A stretch of DNA of 47,711 nucleotides from a bacterium. Lineage in GTDB: Bacteria; SAR324; NAC60-12. The stretch covers positions 1 through 47,711 of the forward strand of contig CBDDTI010000102.1 in assembly GCA_965233585.1 (NCBI GenBank). Reading direction: 5' to 3'. A program made the translations under genes and the position numbers. The notes under the pieces were generated by a model, which was given only the letters and a program-made list of their open reading frames with translations, ran no database searches and had not been told where the DNA came from. Of this stretch, positions 1-45,985 are shown piece after piece. The first letter of the stretch is position 1. Each line of letters begins with the position of its first letter.

Positions 1-20
1 TCTTGTGCTCAGGCTTCAAA

Positions 21-1328
21 TTACTCAATCTCCTCCTCAACAGTGACCTCCACCATCTCAGAAGACTGCTGAGGCTCTTCAAGTCTTGCCTTCTTGGTGG
101 CTGGACCACAAGACTCAAACTCAGCACTGGCAGCCTCAGAAGGAACTGCAGCTTCAGGCTTGCTGGCACCAGGAGGCTCAGGAACTTGATCTTCAGGAAT
201 TGGCTTCTTACCATCTTTCTGCCTTTTCTGATGCAGCTCCAGCAAAGCCTCAGGGCTCAGACCAATAGCATCCATCTGACTGAGAATCTGCTGAGCCTGC
301 TCTTCTTTTAGCTTCCTCAGTTCCTCCTGAGCCTGTGCCATCTCTTCCTCCTTCTTCTGAGCCACTCTAGCATCAACCCTTTCCTGAGCTTCAATGGTGC
401 CAAGCCTGAGCTCAATCAAGGCAGCTTGCTCCTTAGACATCTTGTCAGCATCTTGCAGGAGCATAGTCATAGTCTCATCCTGAGCTGCATAGGCTTTGTC
501 AATGAGCATAAGCCTCTTAGAGATGATGTCTCTCAGTCCCTCCAAATCTGAGAGATCAGAACCCTCCAAGTCCATTGCCAGATGCTGAGAGATGGCATCT
601 GCCATGCTGTTCTGAGGGTCAATATGAGCAAGAATTGACTTGCAATACCCCCCAGCAAAGAAGGGCTGAGCCTTCTCAGCACCTGCAGCCTCAAGTAACT
701 GCTCAGGTTCAACATCTTGAGGTGACTGAGAATGTTCAGCACCTTGAAGTTGCTGACAACAAGGAGGCTCAGCAGGCTCAGCTGGCCTCTGCTTGTGCTG
801 AAACTGAGCTGCCCCAAAAGATTCTGAGACAAACTTCTGCCAAGGCAATGGGGTCATGTTGAGAATCACCTGATAATACTGAGCAATGACTCTCTGAGGC
901 CACCCATTGACATCCTGCAAGGTTGCAAAAGATGTGAAGAAAACTTTCAATCAGATATTAAAACTTAGTAATTAATATTTTTTCAATTAATCAATTAATT
1001 GATGAAGGCCATGCACCCATGCTCAGAGACACAAAGAACAAATGCATGCACACATGTTCAAACCCATGTCCTTGCAGTCTTTGCACCCATTCTGAAATGG
1101 GATCCTGCTGAGTTTCACCTTAGCATTGCACCCAGGACAAGCAACATCAGGCTCTCCATCATAGCGAGGGTAGCTGATGATCCTCTCAGGGTTTGATCCC
1201 TGAGCAAAGAGGTCATCCACTGAGGGAAAGCTTTGTGGAATGAGCTTGAGCTGAGCATGGCCACCCTTGACAGTAAATTCCATGCCAGATGGAACTAATT
1301 CTGAGTGATCCTTAGTGTTCCTTGCCAT
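21..1328 (-). CDS. Two-exon unknown protein, family A (exon 1 1328-1119 'MARNTKD..CPGCNAK', GT-AG intron 1118-915, exon 2 914-21 coiled-coil/acidic), ~367 aa predicted
   Basis: The 101-aa ORF has AAG|GTGAAACTCAG right after CPGCNAK. The 309-aa ORF (TTG start only) has TTTTGCAACCTTGCAG|GAT. Both sites are phase 0, and the intervening 204 nt include an AT-rich ATTAAT tract. ATG context is CTGAGCCATGG. Confidence 0.6.
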
Positions 1329-1859
1329 GGCTCAGTTGCTGAGTTGCAGCTGGCTGAGTTGAAAGGCAAATAGGCTCACCATGTGCTTGAGTTCACTAAT
1401 CAGCTGAGGAATCACATAAGCACAAGTCCAAGACCATGGGCACAAGTCCAAGACCATGGGCAAGCTGAGAGCCAACCCCACACCCCCAGAACCAACCCTG
1501 AGTCCTCTCTAAGCATTGCCATCATTCTGAGCATCTTCTAAGCCACATCTCTGATTGTTCTCTGTGAGCATCTTCTAAGCCACACCCTCAGGTCCTGCCA
1601 GGGGAAAAATATAAGGACAAGGTCAACTACATGGGCACTGAACCAAGATGAACCATCAATTAATTAATTACAATGTATTAATTACAAGTAGTTCTTGTGA
1701 AACTAGTTCAAAAAAAACAATGGCAACAACAACAGAACCACCTCAGCCCATCAAATGCATTTTTCCACTGCCAGCTGCTTGTCATGGCATGTGATGACAC
1801 AACTCAGTCTGAGCTGAGATATTGCAAAGCATTCCTAAGTCTTGTGCTCAGGCTTCAAA

Positions 1860-3154
1860 TTACTCAATCTCCTCCTCAACAGTGACCTCCACCATCTCAG
1901 AAGACTGCTGAGGCTCTTCAAGTCTTGCCTTCTTGGTGGCTGGACCACAAGACTCAAACTCAGCACTGGCAGCCTCAGAAGGAACTGCAGCTTCAGGCTT
2001 GCTGGTACCAGGAGACTCAGAAACTTGATCTTCAGGAATTGGCTTCTTACCATCTTTCTGCCTTTTCTGATGCAGCTCCAGCAAAGCCTCAGGGCTCAGA
2101 CCAATAGCATCCATCTGACTGAGAATCTGCTGAGCCTGCTCTTCTTTTAGCTTCCTCAGTTCCTCCTGAGCCTGTGCCATCTCTTCCTCCTTCTTCTGAG
2201 CCACTCTAGCATCAACCCTTTCCTGAGCTTCAATGGTGTCAAGCCTGAGCTCAATCAAGGCAGCTTGCTCCTTAGACATCTTGTCAGCATCTTGCAGGAG
2301 CATAGTCATAGTCTCATCCTGAGCTGCATAGGCTTTGTCAATGAGCATAAGCCTCTTAGAGATGATGTCTCTCAGTCCTCCAAATCTGAGAGATCAGAAC
2401 CCTCCAAGTCCATTGCCAGATGCTGAGAGATGGCATCTGCCATGCTGTTCTGTGGGTCAATATGAGCAAGAATTGACTTGCAATACCCCCCAGCAAAGAA
2501 GGGCTGAGCCTTCTCAGCACCTGCAGCCTCAAGTAACTGCTCAGGTTCAACATCTTGAGGTGACTGAGAATGTTCAGCACCTTGAAGTTGCTGACAACAA
2601 GGAGGCTCAGCAGGCTCAGCTGGCCTCTGCTTGTGCTGAAACTGAGCTGCCCCAAAAGATTCTGAGACAAACTTCTGCCAAGGCAATGGGGTCATGTTGA
2701 GAATCACCTGATAATACTGAGCAATGACTCTCTGAGGCCACCCATTGACATCCTGCAAGGTTGCAAAAGATGTGAAGAAAACTTTCAATCAGATATTAAA
2801 ACTTAGTAATTAATATTTTTTCAATTAATCAATTAATTGATGAAGGCCATGCACCCATGCTCAGAGACACAAAGAACAAATGCATGCACACATGTTCAAA
2901 CCCATGTCCTTGCAGTCTTTGCACCCATTCTGAAATGGGATCCTGCTGAGTTTCACCTTAGCATTGCACCCAGGACAAGCAACATCAGGCTCTCCATGAT
3001 AGCGAGGGTAGCTGATGATCCTCTCAGGGTTTGATCCATCACCAAAGATGTCATCCACTGAGGGAAAGCTTGGCCAACTGAGTTTGAGCTGAGCATGGCC
3101 ACCTCTGATAGTATAATCCATGCCATCTGGGACTGAGTCAGAGAGCTTTGCCAT
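1860..3154 (-). pseudogene. Family A copy ('MAKLSDS' exon-1 variant) with a 1-nt deletion frameshift in exon 2
   Basis: Copy of 21-1328 at offset +1838. CC at 2377-2378 versus CCC at 538-540 splits exon 2 into the 138-aa and 162-aa ORFs. Could be a sequencing error. Confidence 0.6.
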
Positions 3155-3220
3155 GGCTCAGTTGCTGAGTTGCAGATGGCTGAGCTGGAAGGCAAAAAGT
3201 TGACTATGTGCTTGAGTTCA

Positions 3221-3508
3221 CTAAGCAGCTGAGGAATCACACAAGCATGCATTCCTGCACAAATTTGAGCACAAGTCCAAGACCATGGGCAAGCTGAGAA
3301 CCAACCCCACACCCCCAAAACCAACCCTGAGTCCTCTGTCAGCATTGCCACCCTTCTGATGCTTCTCCTTCTCAGAGTCTTCCTTATCCTTCTTCTTCTT
3401 CTCAGTGTACTCCCTCAGGGCTTCAATGGCCCACCCTACATCGAAGCCATTCTCTTCAAGGAATCTGAGCACTCTTTCATGAAACTCCTCAGGTGTCTCA
3501 TCTGCCAT
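3221..3508 (-). CDS. Small ORF MADETPEE..., N-terminal part resembles a UBA-like helical motif followed by a Lys tract; true 3' end uncertain
   Basis: Same CTGAGCCATGG start context as the family A genes. FLEENGFDVGWAIEAL resembles the UBA-like 'LExxxWDxxxA' pattern. Open in all three copies. Confidence 0.4.
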   Translation of the reverse strand: MADETPEEFHERVLRFLEENGFDVGWAIEALREYTEKKKKDKEDSEKEKHQKGGNADRGLRVGFGGVGLVLSLPMVLDLCSNLCRNACLCDSSAA

Positions 3509-3581
3509 GGCTCAGAAAGCTTCTTAAACTAGGAATTGAGCCCACACAAGCTGAGAAATGCACCCTTGCTGATGTGAACAG

Positions 3582-6500
3582 CAATTTTTCAAGGTGATAC
3601 CTCATGATTGGCTCAGTTACTCAATAATATGAATGTTTGGATGGTACTCTATTGTGCCCAACAGCTTCTTGGTGTTGAAAAAAATCAAAAACCATTTCTC
3701 CACCTTTCTCTGAGTAAAGCTGGTCCATTTACTTTATAATATTTGTGATAAAGCTTTAAAATGCAAGGTTTTCCAAATAATTAGATGCCTTATTAAACCC
3801 TTATTAAAAAACAGCACTCAGACAATTTTTCAAGGTGGTACCTCATGAGTGGCTCAGTTACTCAATAATATAATTGTTTGGATGGTACTCTATTGTGAGC
3901 ACCAACTTGTGGGAGTGAAAAAAAAAACAAAACCCTTTCTCCACCTTTCTTTGGGTAAAGCTGGTCCTTTTACTTTAGAAAGCCATATTTATGTTAAAGC
4001 TTTAAAATGCAAGGTTTCCCAAATAATTAGATGCCTTATTAAACCCTTATTAAAAAACAGCACTCAGACAATTTTTCAAGGGGGTACCTCATGAGTGGCT
4101 CAGTTACTCAATAATATAATTGTTTGGATGGTACCCTATTGTGAGCACCAACTTTTTGGAGTGAAAAAAAACAAAACCCTTTCTCCACATTTCTTCGGGT
4201 AAAGCTGGTCCTTTTACTTTAGAAAACCATATTTGTGTTCAAGCTTTAAAATGCAAGGTTTCCCAAATAATTAGATGCCTTATTAAACCCTTATTAAAAA
4301 ACAGCACCCAAACAATTTTTCAAGGGGATACCTCATGATTGGCTCAGTTACTCAATAATATAATTGTTTGGATGGTACTCTATTGTGAGCACCAACTTTT
4401 GGGAGTGAAAAAAAAGCAAAACCCTTTCTCCATCTTTCTTTGGGTAAAGCTGATCCTTTCACTTTAGAAAGCCATATTTGTGTTAAAACTTTAAAATGCA
4501 AGGCTTTCCAAATAATTAGATACCTGAAAAAACCATAATTGGCTCAGTTACTCAATAATATAATTGTTTGGATGGTACTCTATTGTGAGCACCAACTTGT
4601 GGGAGTGAAAAAAGAAAAACAAAACCCTTTCTCCACCTTTCTTTGAGTAAATCTGGTGCCTTTACTTCAGAAAGCTATATTTGTGTTAAAGCTTTAAAAT
4701 GCAAGGTTTTCCAAATAATTAGATGCCTTATTAAACCCTTATTAAAAAACAACACCCAGACAATTTTTCAAGGGGATACCTCATGATTGACTCAGTTACT
4801 CAATAATATAATTGTTTGGATGGTACTCTATTGTGAGCACCAACTTGTGGGAGTTAAAAAAACAAAACCCTTTCTCCACCTTTCTTTGGGTAAAGCTGGT
4901 CCTTTTACTTTAGAAAGCCATATTCGTGTTAAAACTTTAAAATGCAAGGTTTTCCAAATAATTAGATACCTGAAAAAACCATAATTGGCTCAGTTACTCA
5001 ATAATATAATTGTTTGGATGGTACTCTATTGTGAGCACCAACTTTTTGGAGTGAAAAAAAGCATTAAAACCCTTTCTCCACCTTTCTTTGGGTAAAGCTG
5101 GTGCCTTTACTTTAGAAAGCTATATTTGTGTTAAAACTTTAAAATGCAAGGATTTCCAAATAATTAGGTACCTGAAAAAACCATAATTGGCTCAGTTACT
5201 CAATAATATAATTGTTTGGATGGTACTCTATTGTGAGCACCAACTTGTGGGAGTGAAAAAAAACAAAACCCTTTCTCCAACTTTCTTTGAGTAAATCTGG
5301 TGCCTTTACTTCAGAAAGCCATATTTATGTTAAAGCTTTAAAATGCAAGGTTTTCCAAATAATTAGATGCCTTATTAAACCCTTATTAAAAAACAGCACC
5401 CAGACAATTTTTCAAGGGGATACCTCATGATTGACTCAGTTACTCAATAATATAATTGTTTGGATGGTACTCTATTGTGAGCACCAACTTGTGGGAGTGA
5501 AAAAAACAAAACCCTTTCTCCACCTTTCTTTGGGTAAAGCTGATGCCTTTACTTTAGAAAGCCATATTTGTGTTAAAACTTTAAAATGCAAGGTTTTCCA
5601 AATAATTAGATACCTGAAAAAACCATAATTGGTTCAGTTACTCAATAATATAATTGTTTGGATGGTACTCTATTGTGAGCACCAACTTTTGGGAGTGAAA
5701 AAAAACATTTTCTTCACCTTTCTTTGGGTAAAGCTGATGCCTTTACTTTAGAAAGCCATATTTGTGTTAAAACTAAAATGCAAGGTTTTCCAAATAATTA
5801 GATGCCTTATTAAATCCTTATTAAAAAACAGCACCCAGACAATTTTTCAAGGGGATACCTCATGATTGGCTCAGTTACTCAATAATATAATTGTTTGGAT
5901 GGTACTCTATTGTGAGCACCAACTTTTGGGAGTTATAAAAAAAACAAAACCCTTTCTCCACCTTTCTTTGGGTAAATCTGGTGCCTTTACTTTAGAAAGC
6001 CATATTTGTGTTAAAGCTTTAAAATGTAAGGTTTTCCAAATAATTAGATGCCTTATTAAACCCTTATTTAAAAACAGCACCCAGACAATTTTTCAAGGGG
6101 ATACCTCATGATTGGCTCAGTTACTCAATAATATAATTGTTTGGATGGTACTCTATTGTGAGCACCAACTTTTGGGAGTGAAAAAAAAATTTCTCCACCT
6201 TTCTTTGGGTAAAGCTGGTCCTTTCACTTTAGAAAGCCATATTTATGCTAAAGCTTTAAAATGCAAGGTTTTCCAAATAATTAGATGCCTTATTAAACCC
6301 TTATTAAAAAACAGCACTCAGACAATTTTTCAAGGGGGTACCTCATGAGTGGCTCAGTTACTCAATAATATAACTGTCTGGATGGTACTCTATTGTGAGC
6401 ACCAAGTTTTTGGAGTAAAAAAAACATTTCTCCACCTTTCTTTGGGTAAAGCTGGTCCTTTTACTTTAGAAAGCTAATTTATGCTAAAGCTTTAAAATGC

Positions 6501-6660
6501 AAGGTTTTCCAAATAATTAGATGCCTTATTGAACCCTTATTAAAAAACAGCACTCAGACAATTTTTCAAGGGGGTACCTCATGAGTGGCTCAGTTACTCA
6601 ATAATATAATTGTTTGGATGGTACTCTATTGTGAGCACCAACTTTTGGGAGTGAAAAAAA
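3582..6660. repeat. Satellite array 1, ~13 monomers of ~244 bp (long) and ~200 bp (short)
   Basis: Tandem recurrence of TGGCTCAGTTACTCAATAATATAATTGTTTGGATGGTACTCTATTGTGAGCACCAAC. Short monomers end in GATACCTGAAAAAACCATAA. The first monomer is divergent. Confidence 0.97.
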
Positions 6661-7434
6661 TAAAAATAAATTAAAAGTAAATTGAAATCAATTGAAAGTA
6701 AATTGAAAGTAAATTAAAAGTAAATTGAAATCAATTGAAAGTAAATTGAAATCAATTGAAAGTAAATTAAAAGTAAATTAAAATCAATTGAAAGTAAATT
6801 GAAATCAATTGAAAGTAAATTAAAAGTAAATAGAAAGTAAATTGAAAGTAAATTGAAAGTAAATTAAAAGTAAATTGAAATCAATTGAAAGTAAATTGAA
6901 ATCAATTGAAAGTAAATTAAAAGTAAATAGAAATCAATTGAAAGTAAATTGAAATCAATTGAAAGTAAATTGAAAGTAAATTGAAAGTAAATTGAAAGTA
7001 AATTAAAAGTAAATTGAAATCAATTGAAAGTAAATTGAAATCAATTGAAAGTAAATTAAAAGTAAATTGAAATCAATTGAAAGTAAATTGAAATCAATTG
7101 AAAGTAAATTAAAAGTAAATTGAAAGTAAATTGAAAGTAAATTGAAAGTAAATTGAAATCAATTGAAAGTAAATTAAAAGTAAATTGAAATCAATTGAAA
7201 GTAAATTGAAAGTAAATTAAAAGTAAATTAAAAGTAAATTGAAATCAATTGAAAGTAAATTGAAATCAATTAAAAGTAAATTAAAAGTAAATTGAAAGTA
7301 AATTGAAAGTAAATTGAAATCAATTGAAAGTAAATTAAAAGTAAATTGAAATCAATTGAAAGTAAATTAATTAATTAAAAGTAAATTGAAATCAATTGAA
7401 AGTAAATTGAAATCAATTGAAAGTAAATTGAAAT
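6661..7434. repeat. AT-rich minisatellite built from 11-bp AAAGTAAATT(G/A) and 10-bp AAATCAATTG units
   Basis: About 770 bp made almost entirely of these two units, read directly. Confidence 0.97.
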
Positions 7435-7504
7435 CCTTTCTTAAGTTGATTGACCAAAAAATGTTGAGGGGGGGCAAAAAAAAGTGCGAGTTATAGAGTA
7501 TCCT

Positions 7505-7541
7505 CAAATTGTTTGGGGGGGGCCCCCCTCACACTAATCAG
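7505..7541 (+). other. Putative mobile-element terminus: G8C6 palindrome followed by TCACACTAATCAG
   Basis: AAATTGTT...hairpin...CCTCACACTA(A/G)TCAG recurs at 17360-17394 and 43920-43954. This copy sits at the switch from CpG-poor to CpG-rich DNA. Confidence 0.45.
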
Positions 7542-7616
7542 ATGCAAACATTAAGAGCTTTCATGGAATTTGTAACGGTTCGTTGTCATCCTGAGTTATC
7601 TAAAATCTGGTCTAAG

Positions 7617-8423
7617 GAGAAAACCTTTGAGCAACTGGTGACCGAGTTTTTGGGAAGAGAGGGCCAGCCCTTGCACTTGAAACCAGAATGTTTTGCCATC
7701 AGTGAGCCTGATGAACTGGAGCGTATCTGGGGTGTTCCAAAGCCTAGTGAAATGCACCTCCCAGAGCTACATTCTCAGAGATTTCAATTGTCTTGCGCAG
7801 CTATGTGTTTAGTCTTTTTCCCATCCCATTAAGATGTCGGTGAATGATTTCAACTAAGGTCCATGCAGAAATCCTTGCAAGGATACCGCCAACAGTTTCC
7901 CAATAAGAACATCTTTGACTTGTCACAGAACCCCCGGACCTATGGCCGGACAGACCTCAAAGACCACTCTATGCCGACTCTGGCTCGCAGTAGCCGACAT
8001 CTATGGCTCCTAGTCCCCAACTAGTTCTTGATTTCCGATCCTTTCCCAACTTCCGGTCCTTGACTTCCGTCCTTGCCCAACGTGCTCAGGTCAGAACCTT
8101 TGGGCCGGTGCTACACTGGTCGAGAGAAGCTTTTGAGTTTGGGGATGCCAGTATGGGGGCCTTATGCCGAAGCTGCTGGGGTGGAGGGGCCCTCAGCATA
8201 GTATCAGCATAGAAACAAATTATATTTTTTTTACAATTGGTTGATACCCAGTCTTATATAATTCACTATGAGTTCAAAAGCTGAGGACCGGGTTGACCTA
8301 GCCGATGATGGCACTTTCAGTGAGTCATGCCTTACCTCCATGACGGGCAACGCAATGCATTTACCAAGCGTTGGACTTTCAATGCTTGTCTCCAAATTGT
8401 GTGTCAAGAAAAATTCGAAGTGA
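7617..8423 (+). pseudogene. 5'-truncated, intron-containing C5 cytosine DNA methyltransferase gene, C-terminal half (exons 7617-7765, 7859-8005, 8090-8180/8183, 8286-8423)
   Basis: Spliced translation: EKTFEQLV...HLPESMQKSLQGYRQQFPNKNIFDLSQNPRTYGRTDLKDHSMPTLARSSRHLWSEPLGRCYTGREKLLSLGMPVWGPYAEAAG(V)DRVDLADDGTFSESCLTSMTGNAMHLPSVG...KNSK*. RCYTGREKLLSLGMP matches motif IX and GNAM matches motif X. All acceptors are AG|G and phases are consistent. Motifs I, IV, VI and VIII were not found upstream. Confidence 0.78.
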
Positions 8424-9003
8424 TATATACGTGCGCAACATTTCTCATGGTTGCATTAAACAACCTGCGGTGGAAGCTGGAGATAAAAAATGATGGGGTC
8501 CAGGGTTTTTGTTGTTTAGCTTGAGATGTTGTCCCCACTTCCTCATCGGAACTGTGCAAAGGATTGAACCCAATTTTTTTACCCTTACACGCAATTCCTT
8601 ACCCGCACAGTGGCATGTTGGAGGCAGTTTGCTGCGCGCCTCTGCTGTGCGGAGCAACTGCTGGGCCAGGGGGCCTGGCGCAGACGGGACAGGAAAGAGG
8701 GAACCTGAACTTTCAACATGTGGATTTATTTTCTTGTTTATTTCTGATTGCATCAGTCCGTCACGTTTGAATACCTATCCATCCGCAATCTGTTAATTTC
8801 AGGGTTCAAGAAATAAAAGTTAGCTGGCAGATTGAACTGTAGAAAACATAAGGAATAAACACTCACATGGCATTGCTGAACACAAATTGCACTTAGCCAA
8901 GGCTTCACGTCACTATGTTTCAGTCTCATATAAGACATAGAATTTCATTCCTAGTAGTGACCAAATGATATCAAATAACATGCTTACGTAAAACAACAAC
9001 ACG

Positions 9004-10263
9004 TTAATATAATAGTTCATTCTTGTCCAGCTGGTCCTTGGCAGTCTGGTAGGCAGCTGAGGTGATGTCAGTCAGCTTGCTCAGCTTTTTCTCAGCCTTG
9101 CTTTTTTGCTGGGCAATGCCAGCCATTTGAGACTCAAGCTTAGCATGTCTGATTTTGGCATCTTCACTGAGAGCATTTGCATGAGCCAGCAGCTTAGGCA
9201 CAATAGTGACCAACCTGAGTTTCCAATCTTTCCAGCCATCCTCAGGCCAGACTGAAGGCCACTCACCCCTGAAAAGCCTCAGCTCTTCCTCCATGTAATG
9301 CAGCACATAGCAGCCACAAGCATTGCTGCCCACAGGCTGAGTGGCAATGTTGCTGGGGGGGGAGATTGAAATCAGGGTCAATCAACTGGCCCATGAAGAT
9401 CTGCTGAGGATGAGATTCTTCATGCTCTTTGCTGAGGGAGTCATACCTCCTCCAAGTGATGGGTTGCCCAGGCCCTGCCCTCTGAGCTGCCAGTAAGGTC
9501 CAATGAAACTGAGAATACACTGGAACCAAAAGAAGCTTGCAGTGCTGAGACCAGCTTTTCTTGATGCCTTCCTTGAAGCCATCCAGCTGCTCAGGGTTGC
9601 CATCATTTTCAAGGATCAGCTTGCTGAGGATTGGGTCCACACAGTGAACTCCTAAGACTTCTGGGAGGGCAACATTAGCCTTGTCAAAGCACCATCTGAG
9701 AAGGGCCCAGCCAAGCCAAAGGTGCTGATCCTCCATCTCAGGGATTTCCTTAGGGCATGGGATCACTGAGTGGATACTCCACTCCTTTGGGCTCAAGCCA
9801 ACCTCATCTTCAGGATTGCAGCTCAGCTGGCTCAGCATGAGGCTGAGATCTCTCTTGCTGAGCTGGGTCCACTTAGGCCACTTCACCTTCAGAACTTTAG
9901 CCTTAGAGCTCTTGATCTCCACCCATTCAGGCTCAACATGATATGCACCTGAGTCAGTCACACAGATGTATGTAGCTGGTGTGCTGCCATAAGTGAGCTT
10001 GCCATGCTTGCCAAAGCTGAGCCTGCCTGCTGCTTCTGAAACAATCACAACTTCTTGATTGAAAAGAGGATCATCAAATTCAATTTCAGCAGGTGGTGCT
10101 TGCTCAGGTGGAGGCAATGGTGGTTTCTCAGAAAGGTCCTGCTTGGAGCCAGCCTTGACTAAGGCTTTAGCTGAAGCTTGTTTTTCAGCTTTTTTCTTCA
10201 AGCTCTTGAGCTTAGCTGAGGGCTTGGTCTTGCAGGAAGCTTTGTTCTTGATGGAAGCTTTGA
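9004..10263 (-). pseudogene. Ulp1/C48 SUMO-protease domain region, frameshifted at a G8 run (9355-9362); probable C-terminal part of the transposase ORF
   Basis: LLLVPVYSQFHWTLL (His codon 9503-9505), RRYDSL (Asp 9440-9442) and TQPVGSNACGCYVLHYME (Gln, Cys 9316-9318) give the H-D-(Q)-C order of peptidase C48. Removing one G joins the 312-aa and 125-aa ORFs. Confidence 0.85.
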
Positions 10264-10283
10264 AGGCTAGGCTGAGTTTTTTC

Positions 10284-13268
10284 TTAGGCTAGGCTGAGTT
10301 TTTTCTTAGGCTTGCTTTTCTGCCTGGCCTCAGGCTGGAGCTCAGCCAAAGCTTCATCTCTGCTCATGCCTGATAGTTTCTCAGCCACTGTTTGCACAAG
10401 TTTGCTCTTGTGCTTCCTCAGCAGCTTTCTGAGCTTCCTCTGCCTGGCCCTCTTAACAACATCTTTATCTTTCTTGCTTTGATACTCAGCAGTCCCCATT
10501 CTTCTGATTTGGGCTCTTCTGAGGGAAGGATGAATCCTCAGGGACAATGAGTTTTGAAGTTCTAGCTCCAAGTCCTCAGCAATGGCATCAGTGATCTCTG
10601 GCTGGAGGTCTTCCTCAGTGCAGTCCTTCTCATCCTCAGGGTTGTAATAGTCCCAGATTTGGAGGTCTGAGATGTGCTTCGCTGTGCTGCTCAGACTCCA
10701 ATCTGCCTTTGCAGGCACTCCCTCAGCATCTCTCCACTTGAGCCTGTCTCTGAGCCACTCAGGACTGTACCTCTTGGTGCCAACCTCTAAGCCAATCTCC
10801 TTAGCCCAGCTCTGAGACAGGAGTTCTACAAGCCTCCCTGATGCTGGATCAGGCCTGTAGACCAGGATCCCATTCCTCACTGCAGCTCTGAGGACCCATT
10901 CATCTTTGAGGTTCTTCTCAGCCATTGCTTCTTGAGCTGCCACAACTGCAGTGACAATTTCTAAGGGGCCAACTTTCCAAACTGAGTGCTCCACCTTTCT
11001 CTGGGTCTGCCACTGGGCTCTGAGATCAGTGAGCTTGTGTCTCACTAAGGCCTTGAACTGCTTAGCAAAATCAGTGTCAGTGATTTGCAACTTAGAGGTG
11101 CACTTCTCAGCCACAAGGCAGCTTAACTGATTTGCTAAGGCCATGGACTCAGTGGCTGAGTCACTGAACACTGAGGAGAAGCAATCCCTCATCCAAATGG
11201 ATGCAGGGTACTGGGCAGCTTGAGCCTGGATGCTCCAGCTGAGGATAACTGAGTCCACATTGGCTGCAGGCTGCTGCATGATCTCAACCTTAGACATGAG
11301 CTCAGGGTGGCTCTGCCTCAGCCTCCTGTAGGGCAGCATGACTCTCCCAGCTGAGCTTCCCTGAGTCCTGGTGATGACCTTATCACCAATTTTGAAGGTT
11401 TCATCACTGAGCCAGGTGCCACTCTCTGAGATGTTGCTCAGTCTGGCCCATTCACCTGGCACAACTAACAGCCCTTTGCCAACTGAGCCAATGATCTCCT
11501 GAGACTCATCGCCATAAACTGAGTGCAGGAGCTGCCTGGCTTCATATGTGATCCTGTATCTATCCTCCCCTGAGATTCCAATGAGAGTGGTGGATCCTGG
11601 CTGAGGCAAAGCTGGCTTGGCTGCTGGTGCTGAGGGCTGGGTTGAGCTTGCTGCATCTTTCTGAATGCTGGCTTCTGCATCTTGCTGAGGGCTGGCTGGG
11701 ACCATTTGCTCAGCATCTCCTGGAGCAGGGCTGGCTGAACCACAGAGACATTGCTCAGATTGGCTGGGTGGAGGTGAATCAAAGCTGCCCTGCTTCACCA
11801 GAGAATCTTGCTCAGGTTGGCTGGCTGGAGGGCTGCTGGCTGCTGATGCAAAGCTGAGCTGCCTCACTACTGACTCCTTGGGAGATGACTCAAAGCTGAA
11901 CTTTCTTTGAGGCTGAGGTGTGGATGGTACAATGGGCCCTATCAACATGTCAGGCCCATGCTCTGAGTGCATGGCTTCACTGATGGCTAGCCTGACTGAA
12001 GAGTAGTCCTTGACATCAGCTGAGGCATGCAGTTCCTCCTCAGCAAAGACAGCTCTTCTACCTGTAGCCTTAGCCCACAAAGGCACCTGATCAGAGAATC
12101 CAATGACCAACTGAGACCTTGCTGAAATGAACTGGGCAGGGCTGCTGAGCCTGTTGCTGTCAGCTAATGTCTGCTGAGATGCACATGTTGCTAGCCACAA
12201 TGTGTGGTCAAACTCTTGCCAGGTCAGCTTGGTCCTGGTTTGGGCTTCTACCTGGGAGATGTTTGTAACTAGCTCAGTGGACATGTACTTAGCATCAAGC
12301 CATTTGACCAGCTGAGCCTTAGTCTTTCTCCTGTAAGAGTCACTGTTGCAGAGCTTCTCTTTCCTGACTTCTCTTTCCTTAGCATCTGCCAGAAGCTCAG
12401 CCCTCTTTAGTGCAGGTATCTCAGGCACCTGAGCATTGTTTCTAAGCTCATTGGCTGTGAGCTGAAGCCTACCAAGATACTCAGCAAGCAAATCCTGCTT
12501 AGCAATGGTGTGGCCACATGCTCTTTCAATGCTGAGCCACTGCTTCATTTTTGAGATGATGTCTGAGAATGGAACCTTTCTGCCAGCTCCTGAGGCTCTT
12601 TTCCTCTTGCTCAACTGATGTTTATTCTTGCTTTTGAGATCCTTCTCAGCCACAAGTTTTTCCCAATGCCCTTCCTTAGACAAGATGTTCTTCAGAGCAT
12701 CCTTTCTGATGCCATACTTCTCCACTTGAGCTGCCCAGAAATCTTGTAGACTGCTGAAAGTGTCTTTGACTGCCTTCATCTCCTGGCAATATTTCAACTT
12801 AGTAGCAGCTGAGACTTCAACCCTTTTATTGTATGAGCCTGGTTTTTTTCTGTTTGTTGACTGAGGGCTGGCTTTTGGAGATTTGGATGGCTCTCTAGTC
12901 ACCAATCTCTTTCTTTTCTGTGCTGCCTCAATAAGCTCAGGTTCATTTGTGGCTTGTGAAGCTTCAAACTCAGCTTGCTGTCTGAGTGCTTCATTCTTTT
13001 CTCTGAGAGCATCGTCCTGAAATCTGCCAAGCCTCTGCCTTTTGAAAGGCTGAAGTTGCAGGTGCAATGGCACTGGCTGAGCTTCTTTCTTCTGGCTTGC
13101 TGAGCCAAAGAACTTGCCCAGGCCATACTGTACCTTTCCTGAGCTGGCTGGTGAAGACTCAGGGCTGCCAGTGGCACCCTTCTCAGGTGTAGCTTCAGCT
13201 CCTCCACCTCTAGCTCTGACTTGCTGGGTCACCTTAGTCAGCAAAAAGCCACCATGAAGGTAGCACAT
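10284..13268 (-). mobile_element. pogo-superfamily (CENP-B HTH + DDE_1) transposase ORF, DD35D, 994 aa
   Basis: KRKRASGAGRKVPF..MKQWLSIERACG resembles the CENP-B/Tc5 HTH. IGFSDQVPLW (D393), GEDRYRIT, QQPAANVD, IWMRDCF (D695) and CTSKLQITDTDFAKQFK (D731) align with the pogo motifs NxDETP, GxEKxRxT, QxKAWMD, LxxDxF and TxxLQPLDxxxNKPFK. There are 35 residues between D695 and D731. Confidence 0.82.
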
Positions 13269-15972: not shown

Positions 15973-16862
15973 TCAGAATTCATTCTGAGCCTGTAGATCA
16001 CTGAGGTGCCATTCCACCTCAGCTTCAATGTTCCACTGAGAAAGTAGGTCAGGCTCAGCCACATCTGAGAGGTCTATGCTGCTAAGCACATTGAGCCTCT
16101 CAGCCTTGGTTCTGAGTCCTACTTCCCTGCTATAAGCACTGAGCCAATGCTGCTTAGCACAGCTGAAAGGATGTGCTGAGCCCAGCAGGTCATGGATGGT
16201 TCTCTCAGGTTTGTGGGCCCAAAGTACTGAGAGCTCAGGTCGCTGAGTGTTCTCCACCACCAGGGTCTCCTGCCTGAGCTCTTCATCTGAGGCAGTCCTG
16301 CTGTAGAGTGCCTGAGCTGGCTGAAAAGGTTTCAAGAAACCAACAGACATCAACTAAAAACATCCAAGAACATGTTCCTCTTCACAAAAAAAGGAAACCA
16401 AATGCATTCAAGTACCCTGAGGAATCGATTGTACATGACACCCTCCCTGGTGGCTAAGATAGCAGTGCTCAGCAGCAAGTCCCACTCTGTGAACTGAGCT
16501 TCTGAGTCCCAGTGGGAGACAGGTCCACTGAGAAGTGCCCAGCGCTTCTTCACTAAGAATTCTGAGAACAAAGCTGCACCACCTGCCTGAGGGTCAAACT
16601 CTTCAAAATGCTGCTTGAGGTGCCTCAGGGTGTCCCAGGTACTTCCTCCAGTCATATCCATCCTGAGCTCCATGGCCCTGACCTTCTCTGAGATGAAGTC
16701 AAGCCTCTGCTGAGAATGATCAGAAGCATACCAAAGGTCATCTCTGAGGTTCTGCAGAACCTGCACCAAGGTGCTGAGCTCAGTCTTGAGGCCCAGGAGG
16801 AAGATGAAGCAAAGAGCCAAGACTGAGAGCCCAGCCTGGTGTTGTTTTGTGCTTCCATGCAA
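15973..16862 (-). CDS. Spliced unknown protein (GT-AG intron 16415-16312 joins the 170-aa and 126-aa ORFs); 5' end uncertain
   Basis: CTCAGG|GTACTTG donor and CCAGCTCAG|GCA acceptor, both phase 0, give ..MYNRFLR|ALYSRTASDEELRQE.. The translation between them is typical intron-like T-rich sequence. Confidence 0.55.
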
Positions 16863-17359
16863 AAAAACAAGTAGTTTTTACCATTGGCCTAAGCAATTTT
16901 TTACAGCTGATCCAAGTATGGTACTGCTTGCTGTCAAGAAGCAAGCTGGGGTGCATGAATGACATCTGATAGCTGGCTGAGCCTAGCCTGTAGGTCCACT
17001 GAGGTACCACCTAGGGCTACCATCTGAGGAATGAACAAAAACATGTTGAACCATGCAATCCAAGGACCCAAAAACAAGTTGTTATGTAGCTGAGATGCTA
17101 GCCAAGCTGATGCCTGTGCTGCAAGCAAGAGCCATGATGCACACCATCTTCAGCTGAGGCCCCATGGCTCCAAGAGAAGAACTGATGCTGATGAAGGTGG
17201 CTGATACTGATGCTGATGAGAAAAAGCTGCTGAGGCACATGGTGCTCAAGAGGCTGAGATGCTGAAGACAGACTAGCTCAGGCTACTGTGTCTAAGACCA
17301 GGTTTATCTCCTGCAAAATAATTAATTAGTTAATTAATTATAAATAATTAATTAATTAG

Positions 17360-17394
17360 AAATTGTTGAGGGGTGGGTTCCTCACACTAGTCAG
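17360..17394 (+). other. Second hairpin + CACACTAGTCAG terminus-like motif
   Basis: TGAGG(GGTGGGTT)CCTCA stem-loop, then CACTAG|T, preceded by an ATTA-rich tract. Similar to 7505-7541. Confidence 0.4.
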
Positions 17395-18469
17395 GACACA
17401 AAATTAAGGTGCAAGCTCAGGAACTTGAGAGGCTCAGCCCAGATGAAGCCACCAAGCTGAGGATCACAAAGGCCTTCAGCTGAAGATTCATGGCTGTAGC
17501 CTTGGCTGCCATGGAAGCACATAGAAGCACATGCCATTAATTGATTATGTTTTAGTTCATCCTAAAATTTAAAAGAATAACCAGAAACAAAAACAGGACT
17601 AAACTTGATTGAGAAGCAAGGAAGCAAATGCAGTTGCAACTGGGTGCTCAGAGTGCTGAAGCTTGGGTGCTGGATGCTGCTGTGGTAGCATGCAGGCTCA
17701 GAACAGCCCTAGATGAAAACTTAGAAAGAAATGTCACCAACTGAGGGTGGCCAACACTCAGTGCCAATGCTTAGCAGTGGCTGCAGCCAACCTAAGTATG
17801 CCTAGTATGTTAAGTTATATAAATGCTACTTTAGATAGCCTTTCCTTTAGATAGCCTTTCCTTCATTAGTAGTGACTGCAACCTTCCCTTGTCATGCTAA
17901 GTCAAATCTCAGTGGTTGCTGCCAGCCCCAAGCAACTTTTTTTGATATCTGATGCTGTTCAAGAGCTGATGCATGCTGAGAATGCATCAAGGAGACAAAA
18001 ATCATGACCAAGTCATGGCTGAGGGTTGCTTAGGCTGTGCCCAGCTTCTAAAAAGTAGAAGTCACCTAAGCTCCATCAGAAGTGCATCTGCTGAGTCATA
18101 CTGTGCTTGCTGAGATAGATGCAGATGATGTAGCCCTGATACTTTTCTTCACATCTTCAGGTCCTGCCAGGGGGAACAGTATAAGGACAAGGTAAGCTAC
18201 ATGAGCACTGCACTAAGAAGAACCATTACAATGTCCAACATTAGCCATTGCTTATGCTAAGTAACTAAAGTAATTAGTTAATACTTTAACTATTCTAAAC
18301 TCCAACAACAACCTGCAGCAGTGCCAAAACCACCCACATCCCTGCAGAACTGCACTATTTTTTTCTGCCAGCTTTTCAACATGCTGCCAAGACTTATGAG
18401 CTGACTAAGCATTGCTCAGCATGAATGCACCTGAGTCATACCTCCTCAGGCTCCAAGAAACTGTACTAA

Positions 18470-19018
18470 TTACTTGTTGTCTGAGTTGGCAGACATGGCT
18501 GAGCCCTGGGACCTCTGACTAGTCTCATCTGGCTGACATTTTTGCAACATCTTTCTGAGATCAGCTTCAGTCAGATTGTACTCCCTCATGACCTCATCAA
18601 TGGCAGCCTCTTTGTCTCCTTCTATGTATTTCTCAGCTCTTTGCAGATTCACCTTCAGCTCAGCTTGCAAAGCACTCAGCTCCTTTTGCTCAGCTTCCAT
18701 TCTATCAGCATCTTCCCTGAGCCTGGTGATTGTAAGGTCCTGAAGTATTTTTGCCTGATCAAGTAGAGCAATCTTAGACCTCATACTCTGGCTCAGACCA
18801 TATGCATAGTCTAAGTCCCTGAGCTTCTCATCGTCTTCTGAGTTGTCCAGGAGTTCCTGAATCTCATGGCTAATGTCCAGTTGGTGGAGCTGAGACTTGA
18901 CATAGCCCTGGGCATCATTGGCAGTCCTGATAGGCTGATGCTCCCAAACTGGGCTTCTCTGCATATCTGATAAAGCAGCATCAGGTCTGCCTGAGCACCT
19001 CCCATGATAGTTCCACAT
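18470..19018 (-). CDS. 182-aa coiled-coil protein, family C (diverged paralog of family A/B exon 2)
   Basis: AQGYVKSQLHQLD..SKIALLDQAKILQDLTITRLREDADRMEAEQ aligns with family B AQGYCKSLLAQID..QKLLLVEQAYAAQDATMQRISTDAQQMAEEQ. Start context is CTCAGCCATG. Confidence 0.65.
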   Translation of the reverse strand: MWNYHGRCSGRPDAALSDMQRSPVWEHQPIRTANDAQGYVKSQLHQLDISHEIQELLDNSEDDEKLRDLDYAYGLSQSMRSKIALLDQAKILQDLTITRLREDADRMEAEQKELSALQAELKVNLQRAEKYIEGDKEAAIDEVMREYNLTEADLRKMLQKCQPDETSQRSQGSAMSANSDNK

Positions 19019-19425
19019 GGCTGAGATGATACAGAGCTAAGGTTTGCTGAATCTTTGCACCTAGATTTGATCCTCAATTAAAAAGCTGAGGAGTCACAGA
19101 GACATGCACATATGAACATGCTACAACTTCATTGGTTAATTAATTAATTAGTTACTCAATTCTTTGATGTCAACATGACTGAGCAAGATTGACACAAGGT
19201 CAACTACATGGGCACTGAACTAAGAAGAATCACTACAATGTATTAATTATAATGTGTATTTCTTGGTAATTAAACTAGTTCAAAAAAGCAATGGCAACAA
19301 CAACAGAAACAGCAGCAGCATTGACACATTTTCCCTGCCAGCTGCTTGCCATGGCTTGTGATGTTTCAAAAAAAATAAGGTAATCTGTTAATTACCTAGA
19401 TTCATCGTCAAGCTAGTGTTCATCC

Positions 19426-20634
19426 TCAGGTATTACCTGAGTCTCCCTCTGGCTTCTCAATCCTTTGCTTCTTGCTGAGACCAGGGGGCTCAGAAACTTG
19501 ATCTTCAGGAATTGGCTTCTTACCATCTTTCTGCCTTTTCTGATGCAGCTCCAGCAAAGCCTCAGGGCTCAGACCAATAGCATCCATCTGACTGAGAATC
19601 TGCTGAGCCTGCTCTTCTTTTAGCTTCCCCAGTTCCTCCTGAGCCTGTGCCATCTCTTCCTCCTCCTTCTTCTGAGCCAGGAAACCTTTCAGCTTCTCCT
19701 GAGCATCTAAGATGTCAAGCCTGAGCTGACCTAAGACACCTTGCTCCTCAGCCATCTGCTGGGCATCTGTGGAGATCCTCTGCATAGTGGCATCCTGAGC
19801 AGCATAGGCTTGCTCAACAAGCAGAAGCTTCTGAGAGATGATAGCTTCCAGCTCCTGCACATCTGAGACATCAGGACTAAGGTCCATCCCCTTCAGCTGA
19901 TTGATAGCATGCCTGATGCCATTCTCAGGGTCAATCTGAGCAAGCAATGACTTGCAGTACCCCTGAGCAAAGGTGCTGTCATCAGTCTGAGCAGCCATAG
20001 CAAAGGTAGCAGCTTTAGGTGGCTGAGAAGGTTCAGCATCAGGTTCAGCTTGAGGTTGCTGACAACCAGGAGGCTTAGCAGGCTTAGGTGGCTTCAGTTT
20101 GTGCTTGAACTGAGCTGTCCAGTAAGGTTTTGAGACAAACTTCTGCCAAGGCAATGGGGTCATGTTGAGAATCACCTGATAATACTGAGCAATGACTCTC
20201 TGAGGCCACCCATTGACATCCTGCAAGGTTGCAAAAGATGTGAAGAAAACTTTCAATCAGATATTAAAACTTAGTAATTAATATTTTTTCAATTAATCAA
20301 TTAATTGATGAAGGCCATGCACCCATGCTCAGAGACACAAAGAACAAATGCATGCACACATGTTCAAACCCATGTCCTTGCAGTCTTTGCACCCATTCTG
20401 AAATGGGATCCTGCTGAGTTTCACCTTAGCATTGCACCCAGGACAAGCAACATCAGGCTCTCCATCATAGCGAGGGTAGCTGATGATCCTCTCAGGGTTT
20501 GATCCCTGAGCAAAGAGGTCATCCACTGAGGGAAAGCTTTGTGGAATGAGCTTGAGCTGAGCATGGCCACCCTTGACAGTAAATTCCATGCCAGATGGAA
20601 CTAATTCTGAGTGATCCTTAGTGTTCCTTGCCAT
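19426..20634 (-). CDS. Two-exon unknown protein, family B (exon 1 20634-20425, exon 2 20220-19426)
   Basis: Same exon 1 and intron as 21-1328. Exon 2 (276-aa ORF) has a diverged middle and a shorter tail. Confidence 0.6.
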
Positions 20635-21165
20635 GGCTCAGTTGCTGAGTTGCAGCTGGCTGAGTTGAAAGGCAAATAGGCTCACCATGTGCTTGAGTTC
20701 ACTAATCAGCTGAGGAATCACATAAGCACAAGTCCAAGACCATGGGCACAAGTCCAAGACCATGGGCAAGCTGAGAGCCAACCCCACACCCCCAGAACCA
20801 ACCCTGAGTCCTCTCTAAGCATTGCCATCATTCTGAGCATCTTCTAAGCCACATCTCTGATTGTTCTCTGTGAGCATCTTCTAAGCCACACCCTCGGGTC
20901 CTGCCAGGGGAAAAATATAAGGACAAGGTCAACTACATGGGCACTGAACCAAGATGAACCATCAATTAATTAATTACAATGTATTAATTACAAGTAGTTC
21001 TTGTGAAACTAGTTCAAAAAAAACAATGGCAACAACAACAGAACCACCTCAGCCCATCAAATGCATTTTTCCACTGCCAGCTGCTTGTCATGGCATGTGA
21101 TGACACAACTCAGTCTGAGCTGAGATATTGCAAAGCATTCCTAAGTCTTTTGCTCAGGCTTCAAA

Positions 21166-22464
21166 TTACTCAATCTCCTCCTCAACAGTGACCTCCACCA
21201 TCTCAGAAGACTGCTGAGGCTCTTCAAGTCTTGCCTTCTTGGTGGCTGGACCACAAGACTCAAACTCAGCACTGGCAGCCTCAGAAGGAACTGCAGCTTC
21301 AGGCTTGCTGGTACCAGGAGGCTCAGGAACTTGATCTTCAGGAATTGGCTTCTTACCATCTTTCTGCCTTTTCTGATGCAGCTCCAGCAAAGCCTCAGGG
21401 CTCAGACCAATAGCATCCATCTGACTGAGAATCTGCTGAGCCTGCTCTTCTTTTAGCTTCCTCAGTTCCTCCTGAGCCTGTGCCATCTCTTCCTCCTCCT
21501 TCTTCTGAGCCACTCTAGCATCAACCCTTTCCTGAGCTTCAATGGTGCCAAGCCTGAGCTCAATCAAGGCAGCTTGCTCCTTAGACATCTTGTCAGCATC
21601 TTGCAGGAGCATAGTCATAGTCTCATCCTGAGCTGCATAGGCTTTGTCAATGAGCATAAGCCTCTTAGAGATGATGTCTCTCAGTCCCTCCAAATCTGAG
21701 AGATCAGAACCCTCCAAGTCCATTGCCAGATGCTGAGAGATGGCATCTGCCATGCTGTTCTGAGGGTCAATATGAGCAAGAATTGACTTGCAATACCCCC
21801 CAGCAAAGAAGGGCTGAGCCTTCTCAGCACCTGCAGCCTCAAGTAACTGCTCAGGTTCAACATCTTGAGGTGACTGAGAATGTTCAGCACCTTGAAGTTG
21901 CTGACAACAAGGAGGCTCAGCAGGCTCAGCTGGCCTCTGCTTGTGCTGAAACTGAGCTGCCCCAAAAGATTCTGAGACTAACTTCTGCCAAGGCAATGGG
22001 GTCATGTTGAGAATCACCTGATAATACTGAGCAATGACTCTCTGAGGCCACCCATTGACATCCTGCAAGGTTGCAAAAGATGTGAAGAAAACTTTCAATC
22101 AGATATTAAAACTTAGTAATTAATATTTTTTCAATTAATCAATTAATTGATGAAGGCCATGCACCCATGCTCAGAGACACAAAGAACAAATGCATGCACA
22201 CATGTTCAAACCCATGTCCTTGCAGTCTTTGCACCCATTCTGAAATGGGATCCTGCTGAGTTTCACCTTAGCATTGCACCCAGGACAAGCAACATCAGGC
22301 TCTCCATGATAGCGAGGGTAGCTGATGATCCTCTCAGGGTTTGATCCATCACCAAAGATGTCATCCACTGAGGGAAAGCTTGGCCAACTGAGTTTGAGCT
22401 GAGCATGGCCACCTCTGATAGTATAATCCATGCCATCTGGGACTGAGTCAGAGAGCTTTGCCAT
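21166..22464 (-). CDS. Family A two-exon gene, intact (exon 1 22464-22267, exon 2 22062-21166)
   Basis: 310-aa and 97-aa ORFs with the same splice signals as 21-1328. Confidence 0.6.
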
Positions 22465-22530
22465 GGCTCAGTTGCTGAGTTGCAGATGGCTGAGCTGGAA
22501 GGCAAAAAGTTGACTATGTGCTTGAGTTCA

Positions 22531-22821
22531 CTAAGCAGCTGAGGAATCACACAAGCATGCATTCCTGCACAAATTTGAGCACAAGTCCAAGACCATGGGC
22601 AAGCCGAGAACCAACCCCACACCCCCAAAACCAACCCTGAGTCCTCTGTCAGCATTGCCACCCTTCTGATGCTTCTCCTTCTCAGAGTCTTCCTTATCCT
22701 TCTTCTTCTTCTTCTCAGTGTACTCCCTCAGGGCTTCAATGGCCCACCCTACATCGAAGCCATTCTCTTCAAGGAATCTGAGCACTCTTTCATGAAACTC
22801 CTCAGGTGTCTCATCTGCCAT
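22531..22821 (-). CDS. MADETPEE small ORF, copy 2
   Basis: Near-identical to 3221-3508, with one extra Lys codon. Confidence 0.4.
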   Translation of the reverse strand: MADETPEEFHERVLRFLEENGFDVGWAIEALREYTEKKKKKDKEDSEKEKHQKGGNADRGLRVGFGGVGLVLGLPMVLDLCSNLCRNACLCDSSAA

Positions 22822-32413: not shown

Positions 32414-32944
32414 GGCTCAGTTGCTGAGTTGCAGCTGGCTGAGTTGAAAGGCAAATAGGCTCACCATGTGCTTGAGTTCACTAATCAGCTGAGGAATCAC
32501 ATAAGCACAAGTCCAAGACCATGGGCACAAGTCCAAGACCATGGGCAAGCTGAGAGCCAACCCCACACCCCCAGAACCAACCCTGAGTCCTCTCTAAGCA
32601 TTGCCATCATTCTGAGCATCTTCTAAGCCACATCTCTGATTGTTCTCTGTGAGCATCTTCTAAGCCACACCCTCGGGTCCTGCCAGGGGAAAAATATAAG
32701 GACAAGGTCAACTACATGGGCACTGAACCAAGATGAACCATCAATTAATTAATTACAATGTATTAATTACAAGTAGTTCTTGTGAAACTAGTTCAAAAAA
32801 AACAATGGCAACAACAACAGAACCACCTCAGCCCATCAAATGCATTTTTCCACTGCCAGCTGCTTGTCATGGCATGTGATGACACAACTCAGTCTGAGCT
32901 GAGATATTGCAAAGCATTCCTAAGTCTTTTGCTCAGGCTTCAAA

Positions 32945-34243: not shown

Positions 34244-34309
34244 GGCTCAGTTGCTGAGTTGCAGATGGCTGAGCTGGAAGGTAAAAAGTTGACTATGTGC
34301 TTGAGTTCA

Positions 34310-45578: not shown

Positions 45579-45985
45579 GGCTGAGATGATACAGAGCTAA
45601 GGTTTGCTGAATCTTTGCACCTAGATTTGATCCTCAATTAAAAAGCTGAGGAGTCACAGAGACATGCACATATGAACATGCTACAACTTCATTGGTTAAT
45701 TAATTAATTAGTTACTCAATTCTTTGATGTCAACATGACTGAGCAAGATTGACACAAGGTCAACTACATGGGCACTGAACTAAGAAGAATCACTACAATG
45801 TATTAATTATAATGTGTATTTCTTGGTAATTAAACTAGTTCAAAAAAGCAATGGCAACAACAACAGAAACAGCAGCAGCATTGACACATTTTCCCTGCCA
45901 GCTGCTTGCCATGGCTTGTGATGTTTCAAAAAAAATAAGGTAATCTGTTAATTACCTAGATTCATCGTCAAGCTAGTGTTCATCC

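Follow-up and report, generated by a model that had tools for sequence, protein, structure and literature searches.

Structure of the locus

The window analysed here is the whole of contig CBDDTI010000102.1 (C102), a stretch of 47,711 nucleotides (nt) from a 12.0-Mb, 747-contig metagenome bin filed as a prokaryote. Positions 7617-8423 of its forward strand hold four exons, spliced in RNA, that belong by their relatives to a family of C5 cytosine DNA methyltransferases (DNMTs). The piece stands as host-like, CpG-retaining DNA between two CpG-free repeat elements, a satellite-bearing one upstream and a pogo-like one downstream. We consider it likely that these are the last four exons of an expressed DNMT5-like gene from an alga of the coral-symbiont type, and that on this contig its front half has been cut off by a repeat element lying in one of its introns.

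Translated in a single frame, 7497-8423 contains 7 stops, none of them within the proposed exons; the stop-free stretches 7497-7832, 7848-8024, 8064-8201 and 8262-8423 correspond to four coding pieces, all in that one frame. Joined by script, the exons give 528 nt, that is 175 codons and a TGA at 8421-8423, with 0 internal stops, and DLSQNP, PTL..LW, a motif IX-like stretch and GNAM all fall within the joined frame. The four-exon model of the first-pass annotation, drawn from the letters alone, thus stands at its original coordinates as an open frame of 175 residues.

The first exon on the contig (7617-7765) covers the linker after motif VIII, starts in phase 0 and ends 2 nt into a codon; it aligns with the N-termini of two relatives, P0009 and P0010, and with the column block that follows motif VIII in the family. 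Behind a 93-nt intron (7766-7858, GC..AG then G) lies the exon 7859-8005, which carries the target-recognition region with DLSQNP and PTLARSS..LW; this is the best-conserved block of the family (Y/F-DLSQ, LPCL/PTL, SS..W) and is aligned from residue 634 of DNMT5. An 84-nt intron (8006-8089, again GC..AG then G) leads to the exon 8090-8183, whose motif IX-like stretch R.YTGREKLLSLGMP lines up with the G-x-E..L..LG-x-P block found in the family and in DNMT5. After a 102-nt intron (8184-8285, GA..AG then G), the last coding exon (8286-8423) brings motif X, TGNAMHLPSVG, and the native C-terminus. Relatives terminate at the same place, after LCV..., and in this exon 44 of 45 residues are identical in P0005 and 41 of 45 in P0002.

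A G directly after the acceptor AG is a splice trait of Symbiodiniaceae, and it is present at all three introns. The donors used here, GC, GC and GA, likewise belong to the set GC, GT and GA that predominates in Symbiodinium according to PMC5177918. In genomic relatives represented by unspliced open reading frames (ORFs), exon-encoded residues are better conserved than introns translated in frame: 44/50 in exon 1 versus 9/18 in intron 1 of P0006, 33/49 in exon 2 and 28/31 in exon 3 versus 11/26 in intron 2 of P0004, and 41/45 in exon 4 versus 9/20 in intron 3 of P0002.

All three intron lengths (93, 84 and 102 nt) are multiples of three, so that from 7617 to the stop codon the genomic frame never shifts. 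This one-frame arrangement recurs in the paralogous locus L007, described below, and in several relatives whose exon-intron-exon stretches prokaryotic gene finders had called as single ORFs.

RNA evidence for splicing and expression

Four public runs (X15-X18) were placed on 7440-9400, within which 8496-9090 has no RNA cover. X15 and X16 come from two different studies and are RNA-like: contig word depth reaches 27-39 in a run of ~105 million letters, far above plausible genomic coverage for such an organism, and for this reason they are taken as RNA. Contigs of both runs skip the proposed introns. The first joint, 7765/7859, is found in both (depth 27 in X15, 4.1 in X16). The second appears in both as 8004/8089 with 2 ambiguous letters and is read as 8005/8090, GC..AG. 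The third is complete in X15 only, as 8182/8285 with 3 ambiguous letters, for which 8183/8286, GA..AG, is the sole canonical placement; at this intron X16 shows a 16-letter loose end behind 8185, read as the start of exon 4. The junctions proposed from the sequence are thereby seen in RNA-like contigs, with one correction: an alternative GT donor at 8181 falls outside the range permitted by the RNA joint.

Beyond the stop codon, the RNA runs on collinear with the DNA into a 3' untranslated stretch (8424-8490), the X15 contig reaching 8474 and the X16 contig 8490. Over 7617-8490, the untranslated end included, the RNA contigs are identical to the window save for one letter per run; the RNA would derive from this very allele. 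In both runs the match to the window begins exactly at 7617, directly after an AG. The loose end before that point is identical in X15 and X16 (29 and 53 letters) and in frame, reading ..S-W-S-E-G-H-T-W-Q-H, then E-K-T-F-E-Q-L. The outcome, a genuine expressed gene, shows that non-canonical splice sites of dinoflagellates can be located with single-base accuracy by reading the sequence alone.

Two short X15 contigs (58 and 59 nt) share 8090-8119, with upstream parts resembling the loose end before 7617; they could reflect exon skipping or paralogue transcripts.

Methyltransferase identity

An exhaustive phmmer search with the read-through translation against 1.84 billion representative proteins returned 50 relatives at E<=0.001, of which 13 reached E<=1e-10. 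Residues 3-171 of the spliced peptide are colinear with eight contiguous relatives (P0009, P0014, P0017, P0020, P0025, P0032, P0035 and P0048), the best being P0009 at 43% identity and E 1.8e-40. Since the spliced peptide aligns to these without intron inserts, the comparison supports the splicing independently of the RNA.

In an alignment of 27 relatives, the longer members carry motif IV as G-x-PC-[VI]-x-FS, motif VI as IHENV and motif VIII as FG-x-P-x-x-R-x-R, all upstream of the block equivalent to the window; that block itself reads Y/F-DLSQ.., LPCL/PTL..SS..W, G-x-E-x-L..LG-x-P and GNGM. In the window peptide, too, motifs IX and X follow the target-recognition region in the order found in C5 methyltransferases. 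Among 49 relatives, PF00145 is detected at E<=0.1 in 4, of which 1 lies above the gathering score and 3 below it. The one above is P0038 (30.6 bits against a cut-off of 22), where the match is N-terminal to the part homologous to the window.

Comparison with solved structures leads to the same family. The only significant solved match of profile A1 (27 sequences) is Cryptococcus DNMT5 (7r76, deposited as "Rad8"; E 1.6e-8), profile positions 97-208 covering residues 634-733, that is, the target-recognition region and motifs IX-X that correspond to exons 2-4 of the window. Profile A3, built from the ten longest members, finds M.HhaI (1.2e-10), DNMT5 (6.4e-10) and Dnmt2 enzymes (from 2.8e-6). An AlphaFold2 model of P0031 (477 residues) has a mean predicted local distance difference test score (pLDDT) of 66.6; from about residue 240 onward the values are 72-97, and the N-terminal part is poor. 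Its top four fold matches are DNMT5 entries (E 7e-9 to 1e-7); M.MpeI, a Dcm-like enzyme, Dnmt2 and M.HhaI come next. Among solved structures DNMT5 is thus the closest by profile A1 and by the P0031 fold, while the long-member profile A3 marginally favours M.HhaI.

Taken together, the profile, PF00145 and fold matches of the relatives identify the family as C5 cytosine methyltransferases with a DNMT5-like C-terminal half. They support, by way of the relatives, the same identity for the window peptide, which would be the C-terminal part of such an enzyme, as had been proposed from its motifs. In C5 methyltransferases the target-recognition region reads the DNA, and motifs IX and X fold back on the N-terminal Rossmann half, completing the cofactor pocket. 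The four-exon piece alone cannot methylate; the full protein would be expected to be an active methyltransferase.

Pfam scans of the single exon frames and of the X-read-through yielded only a bL9m_N match in exon 1; at 20.4 and 17.2 bits it stays below the cut-off of 27.3 and was treated as noise.

The front half of the gene and a compact paralogue

The catalytic N-terminal half is missing from the window, as the first-pass annotation had stated. A tblastn search of the 47.7 kb with the N-terminal parts of 13 relatives found none of it (36 high-scoring segment pairs at E<=10, the best at E 0.068 over 16 residues), PF00145 has 0 matches on the contig, and motifs I, IV (PC), VI (ENV) and VIII are absent from the window DNA and from the bin. 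The whole family searched against the bin gave only C102:7530-8810 and one weak match on contig C201 from another gene. Where the N-terminal half would be expected lie satellites (3582-7433), also as first described.

A compact and complete paralogue is available for comparison. With exon 2 as the query, a search of JGI metagenome contigs gave at least 598 pattern matches and at least 1 locus; L007, one locus among the listed matches, is 2689 nt long, 67% identical and has a CpG observed/expected ratio (o/e) of 0.51. Counterparts of the four exons occupy its positions 1400-2296, their introns in matching positions, and upstream of them lie motif VIII (..FQSPTSRPREYRLTW.....AW, ~1153-1250), motif VI (LENV, ~843-989), motif IV (GTPCVLFS, ~560-763) and a motif-I-like LFSGIEC near 250, so that motifs I, IV, VI and VIII all lie within ~1.2 kb before the four exons; the sequence ends 390 nt past its stop codon.

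In L007 one exon ends in A-W-R-C and the next starts with E-K-S-F-D-E-L, with an intron of ~150 nt between them. From the same spacing in the window RNA and in L007, together with the conserved W column of the family, we read the exon spliced to 7617 as the end of the motif-VIII exon. The description of the piece as a "half-gene" or "remnant" is not borne out, because the RNA splices 7617 to an upstream exon homologous to the preceding exon of the family and the gene is expressed; the front half probably lies off this contig.

In the equivalent intron of L007, a stretch of ~47 nt is directly duplicated (L007:1283-1376), and the intron at this place may be prone to tandem-repeat growth.

The satellite-bearing element and the probably interrupted intron

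Upstream of the exons, satellite arrays fill 3582-7433, with units of ~203-244 nt at 3582-6660 and 72 copies of the 11-nt unit AAAGTAAATTG at 6663-7433; the 244-nt satellite family also occurs in two other contigs of the bin, C287 and C313. The terminal sequence of the element follows at 7437-7551 and ends ...CAAACAT, then TA. Its 113 nt at 7441-7553 are 97% identical to C287:26463-26573 and C287:36134-36242, both of which adjoin the same satellites and end ...CAAACAT, then TA, then unrelated DNA. From this shared end it follows that the element stops at 7551, 65 nt before the exon start, and that 7552-7616, with its AG acceptor at 7615-7616, is all that remains of the original intron between the repeat and the RNA-defined exon. 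The unrelated flanks of the two C287 copies equally mean that the methyltransferase piece is flank and not cargo.

The join itself is represented in sequencing data: the DNA runs X1-X4 (studies P1 and P2), one of which may be the source sample, contain 132 of 132 sampled words of 7480-8800, a stretch that spans 7551/7552, so the end of the element does abut the intron.

The sequence ...AACAT followed by TA marks the element end not only in the window but also in the two C287 copies and a diverged copy on contig C352 (~18871). It suggests a TA target site for the satellite-bearing element and is compatible with a target of the Tc1/mariner/pogo type. No inverted copy of the element end, as a terminal inverted repeat would require, is present in the window, where the only copy is 7530-7551.

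CpG pattern

The window contains 81 CpGs, of which 43 lie in 7487-9002 and 42 in 7552-9002, an island of 1.45 kb that makes up 3% of the window. CpG o/e is 0.55 in this island (7552-9002) and 0.65 in ordinary DNA of C287, against 0.01 in the pogo-like element and 0.02 in the satellites and the remaining window; the same satellites in C287 have 0.06-0.07. The first-pass annotation had remarked on a methyltransferase remnant inside DNA stripped of CpG. That pairing dissolves, as the piece is itself a CpG-retaining island between flanks of 0.01-0.02. In the pogo-like element TpG (1.47) and CpA (1.48) are raised relative to 1.25 in the island, which would be the signature expected from deamination of methylated CpG.

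Outside the island, 1-7551 and 9003-47711 amount to ~46 kb of repeats and satellites with 38 CpGs in total, an o/e of 0.01-0.02 and raised TpG/CpA. The boundaries between CpG-poor repeats and host-like DNA are sharp to a few bases, the right-hand one (~9003-9020) falling where similarity to the pogo-like element's second copy sets in. Near-complete CpG loss confined to repeats, with the adjacent gene spared, could mark where methylation-driven mutation acts in these genomes.

Interpretation and alternative explanations

The most probable account of these data is an interrupted host gene. The gene would be of a DNMT5-like, methyltransferase-domain-only type present in several copies in Symbiodiniaceae, with the four exons supplying the linker behind motif VIII, the target-recognition region and motifs IX and X. 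In the intron before 7617, ~150 nt long in the paralogue, the satellite-bearing element would have lodged with its end 65 nt short of the acceptor, repeat DNA taking up the remaining 7.5 kb to the contig edge, and in RNA the exon at 7617 would still be spliced to the motif-VIII exon. The gene thus appears to tolerate a large repeat insertion in one of its introns. Of the two origins first offered for the piece, a host gene interrupted by a repeat element and a captured fragment, the former fits and the latter is not supported.

Several observations weigh against this account. That X15 and X16 are RNA is a guess, and the strains behind them may not carry the insertion. X17 and X18, which are certain RNA from coral metatranscriptomes, have unspliced contigs over intron 1 (7676-7905); these could be pre-mRNA or DNA carry-over and were weighed neither way. 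The upstream exon is seen for 29-53 nt only, its last 10 codons, and the 29-letter loose end has 0 matches in the window (up to 3 mismatches), in the bin (up to 3 mismatches) or in JGI metagenome contigs (exact). Word-based protein searches gave no full-length transcript or protein: hits came from 1 of 610 candidates of near length, 0 of 1536 longer ones and 5 of 35 shorter ones, all only genomic fragments. Direct searches for the methyltransferase domain are also empty. PF00145, the test suggested with the first description of the piece, has no match at E<=10 on the four exon frames or on the X-read-through, which thus fall short of its gathering cut-off, nor at E<=0.1 on the contiguous homologue P0009; in the bin, translated in six frames, PF00145 yielded 6 matches among 13 candidates, 0 of them on this contig; and phmmer of the read-through against PDB returned nothing. 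The methyltransferase call is for this reason transitive, via the relatives.

One alternative is that 7617-8423 is a dead 3' fragment left by rearrangement or segmental duplication, and that the spliced RNA stems from a near-identical intact copy elsewhere. The repeat-rich surroundings and the lack of any N-terminal exon in 47.7 kb or in the bin would suit such a fragment, and contigs cannot assign RNA between two identical copies. The exons, though, are free of stops and frameshifts, the intron has kept its last 65 nt and its acceptor undamaged, the break falls where a defined repeat element ends, as expected from insertion into an intron, and the RNA departs from the window by one letter per run even in the untranslated end. 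On this evidence a dead fragment is unlikely.

A bolder version of the interrupted-gene account is that one intron of an active DNMT gene holds 7.5 kb or more of satellite and transposon DNA free of CpG, that the gene is still spliced across this insertion or has its halves joined in trans, and that the CpG contrast reflects element-targeted methylation. We give this reading as a whole little credence, a shade less than the dead fragment. If true, the base-pair-sharp contrast between host DNA (0.55) and repeats (0.01-0.02, with TpG and CpA raised) would show that methylation and deamination are targeted to DNA transposons and satellites in Symbiodiniaceae, here directly next to a gene that encodes one of the enzymes responsible.

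It is rather improbable that the arrangement is an assembly artefact, in which a mis-join inside the repeat would have hidden real upstream exons close by, with an insertion that is small or nonexistent. A mis-join within the repeat could have occurred, which again counts against the interrupted gene as described and makes the insertion size given above presumptive. In favour of an artefact, other copies match the 113-nt element end at 97% identity, the satellites are common to several contigs, and the contig is alien to its metagenome bin (CpG o/e 0.04 against a median of 0.89). Against this, the junction 7551/7552 lies within the stretch for which 132 of 132 words were found in four runs from two studies, and an artefact would alter the size of the insertion only, not the identity of the gene.

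Capture of a gene fragment by the satellite-bearing or the pogo-like element, possibly with a functional link between methyltransferase and transposon, is very improbable, even with the piece flanked by two repeat elements and with Symbiodinium retrotransposons known to carry DNMTs (PMC5890265), given that the two other element ends in C287 have unrelated flanks, that 0 of 2 other pogo-like copies (C352) have a family match nearby at E below 0.046, that the piece has a host-like CpG o/e (0.55, against 0.65 in ordinary C287 DNA and 0.01-0.07 in the elements), that it has three introns whereas transposon-borne DNMTs are intronless (same source), that in RNA it is spliced to a homologous upstream exon lying off the contig, and that no reverse transcriptase was found in the 10 scanned of 16 window ORFs of at least 150 amino acids (aa).

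Comparison with known systems

DNMT5 carries an SNF2-type ATPase C-terminal to its methyltransferase domain, and the Cryptococcus neoformans enzyme (7r76, 7r77, 7r78 and 7t02) has a chain length of ~2350 residues. For the region present in the window it is the best solved match, and for the family model the best fold match, at a fold identity of ~16%, whereas the gene described here stops ~20 residues after motif X. With the stop at 8421-8423 and RNA collinear to 8474-8490, there is no ATPase module here, and no SNF2-type ATPase or other extra Pfam domain was found in the 49 relatives.

With bacterial C5 methyltransferases of the M.HhaI type (PF00145) the family shares the motif order IV (PC), VI (ENV), VIII (R-x-R), IX and X, and the A3 match to M.HhaI (E 1.2e-10) spans motifs IV-VIII. 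It differs in that the Q of PCQ is replaced by V, I or L, and in a C-terminal half too diverged for detection by PF00145.

Within dinoflagellates, de Mendoza et al. 2018 (PMC5890265) describe two classes of Symbiodinium DNMT. More than 90% lack introns and lie within SymbioLINE or DIRS retrotransposons; the exon-rich minority is better expressed, of the Dnmt5, Dnmt6 or Dnmt2 type and mostly without a further domain. The present gene fits the exon-rich class and may belong to either the Dnmt5 or the Dnmt6 clade. According to the same paper, it shares with the exon-rich Dnmt5 and Dnmt6 genes the presence of introns, transcription, a methyltransferase domain only, several paralogues and GC/GA donors, and with exon-rich DNMTs generally the common presence of transposable elements in introns, Symbiodinium transposable elements lying mostly in introns and intergenic DNA. 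It differs from the values reported there in exon length (median 65-68 nt, against 94-149 nt here) and, to judge by the compact paralogue, in gene length (8-11 kb, against ~2.1 kb for L007), and in having only its last four exons on this contig. One supplementary text file of PMC5890265 contains no matching sequence. DNMT5-like genes that have introns and no domain besides the methyltransferase are already known from Symbiodiniaceae, and the present gene is one more of them.

With SymbioLINE-Dnmt and SymbioDIRS-Dnmt3 the piece has in common the organism group and a methyltransferase domain beside repeats. Those are intronless ORFs beside a reverse transcriptase or tyrosine recombinase (PMC5890265), whereas three RNA-confirmed introns are present here. 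Assignment to a retrotransposon-borne DNMT was rejected on these introns and on the lack of any RVT or integrase family in the 10 scanned of the 16 ORFs of at least 150 aa.

Neighbouring repeats and the nature of the contig

The downstream element, labelled pogo-Ulp1 in the first-pass annotation, occupies 9020-13238 on the reverse strand, convergent with the DNMT gene, and has ORFs of 999, 341 and 125 aa. It is 74.6% identical over 4290 nt to C352:24164-28363, and a partial second copy lies at C352:55155-57006. Neither of these two copies has a DNMT family match in its vicinity; throughout C352 the best E is 0.046, over 28 residues, and the proposed linkage between methyltransferase and element found no counterpart there. 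The ORFs of the element have no Pfam or PDB match. Their look-alikes in the Atlas carry DDE_1 (scores 0.87-0.90), which gives the pogo label a lead only, and the Ulp1 label is putative, from His- and Cys-like motifs as read in the sequence.

A second multi-ORF repeat unit, on the reverse strand, is present in 3-4 copies between the satellite blocks (16350-22727, 31112-34506, 42910-46816 and 21-3414), with further copies in C313 and C352; the 8 ORFs scanned in it hold no Pfam family.

The contig as a whole has a CpG o/e of 0.040 against the bin median of 0.89, and its low CpG content and introns identify it as a eukaryotic contig binned by composition. Four others, C313, C138, C352 and C499, also lie below 0.1. 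These four and C287 are eukaryotic as well: either their CpG o/e is 0.02-0.09 or they have repeats of dinoflagellate type, the shared 244-nt satellites and genes with introns. The bin, although filed as a prokaryote, is hereby flagged as containing eukaryotic contigs, to which its completeness and contamination figures give no clue.

Another C5 methyltransferase gene with introns, distinct from the one described here, lies at C201:7335-8997 (loci L005 and L006), on a contig with a CpG o/e of 0.44. With PCVDMS as motif IV, LLENV, SRARVYII, GKERMATLGFP and SGNSMH, it is apparently complete from motif IV to X.

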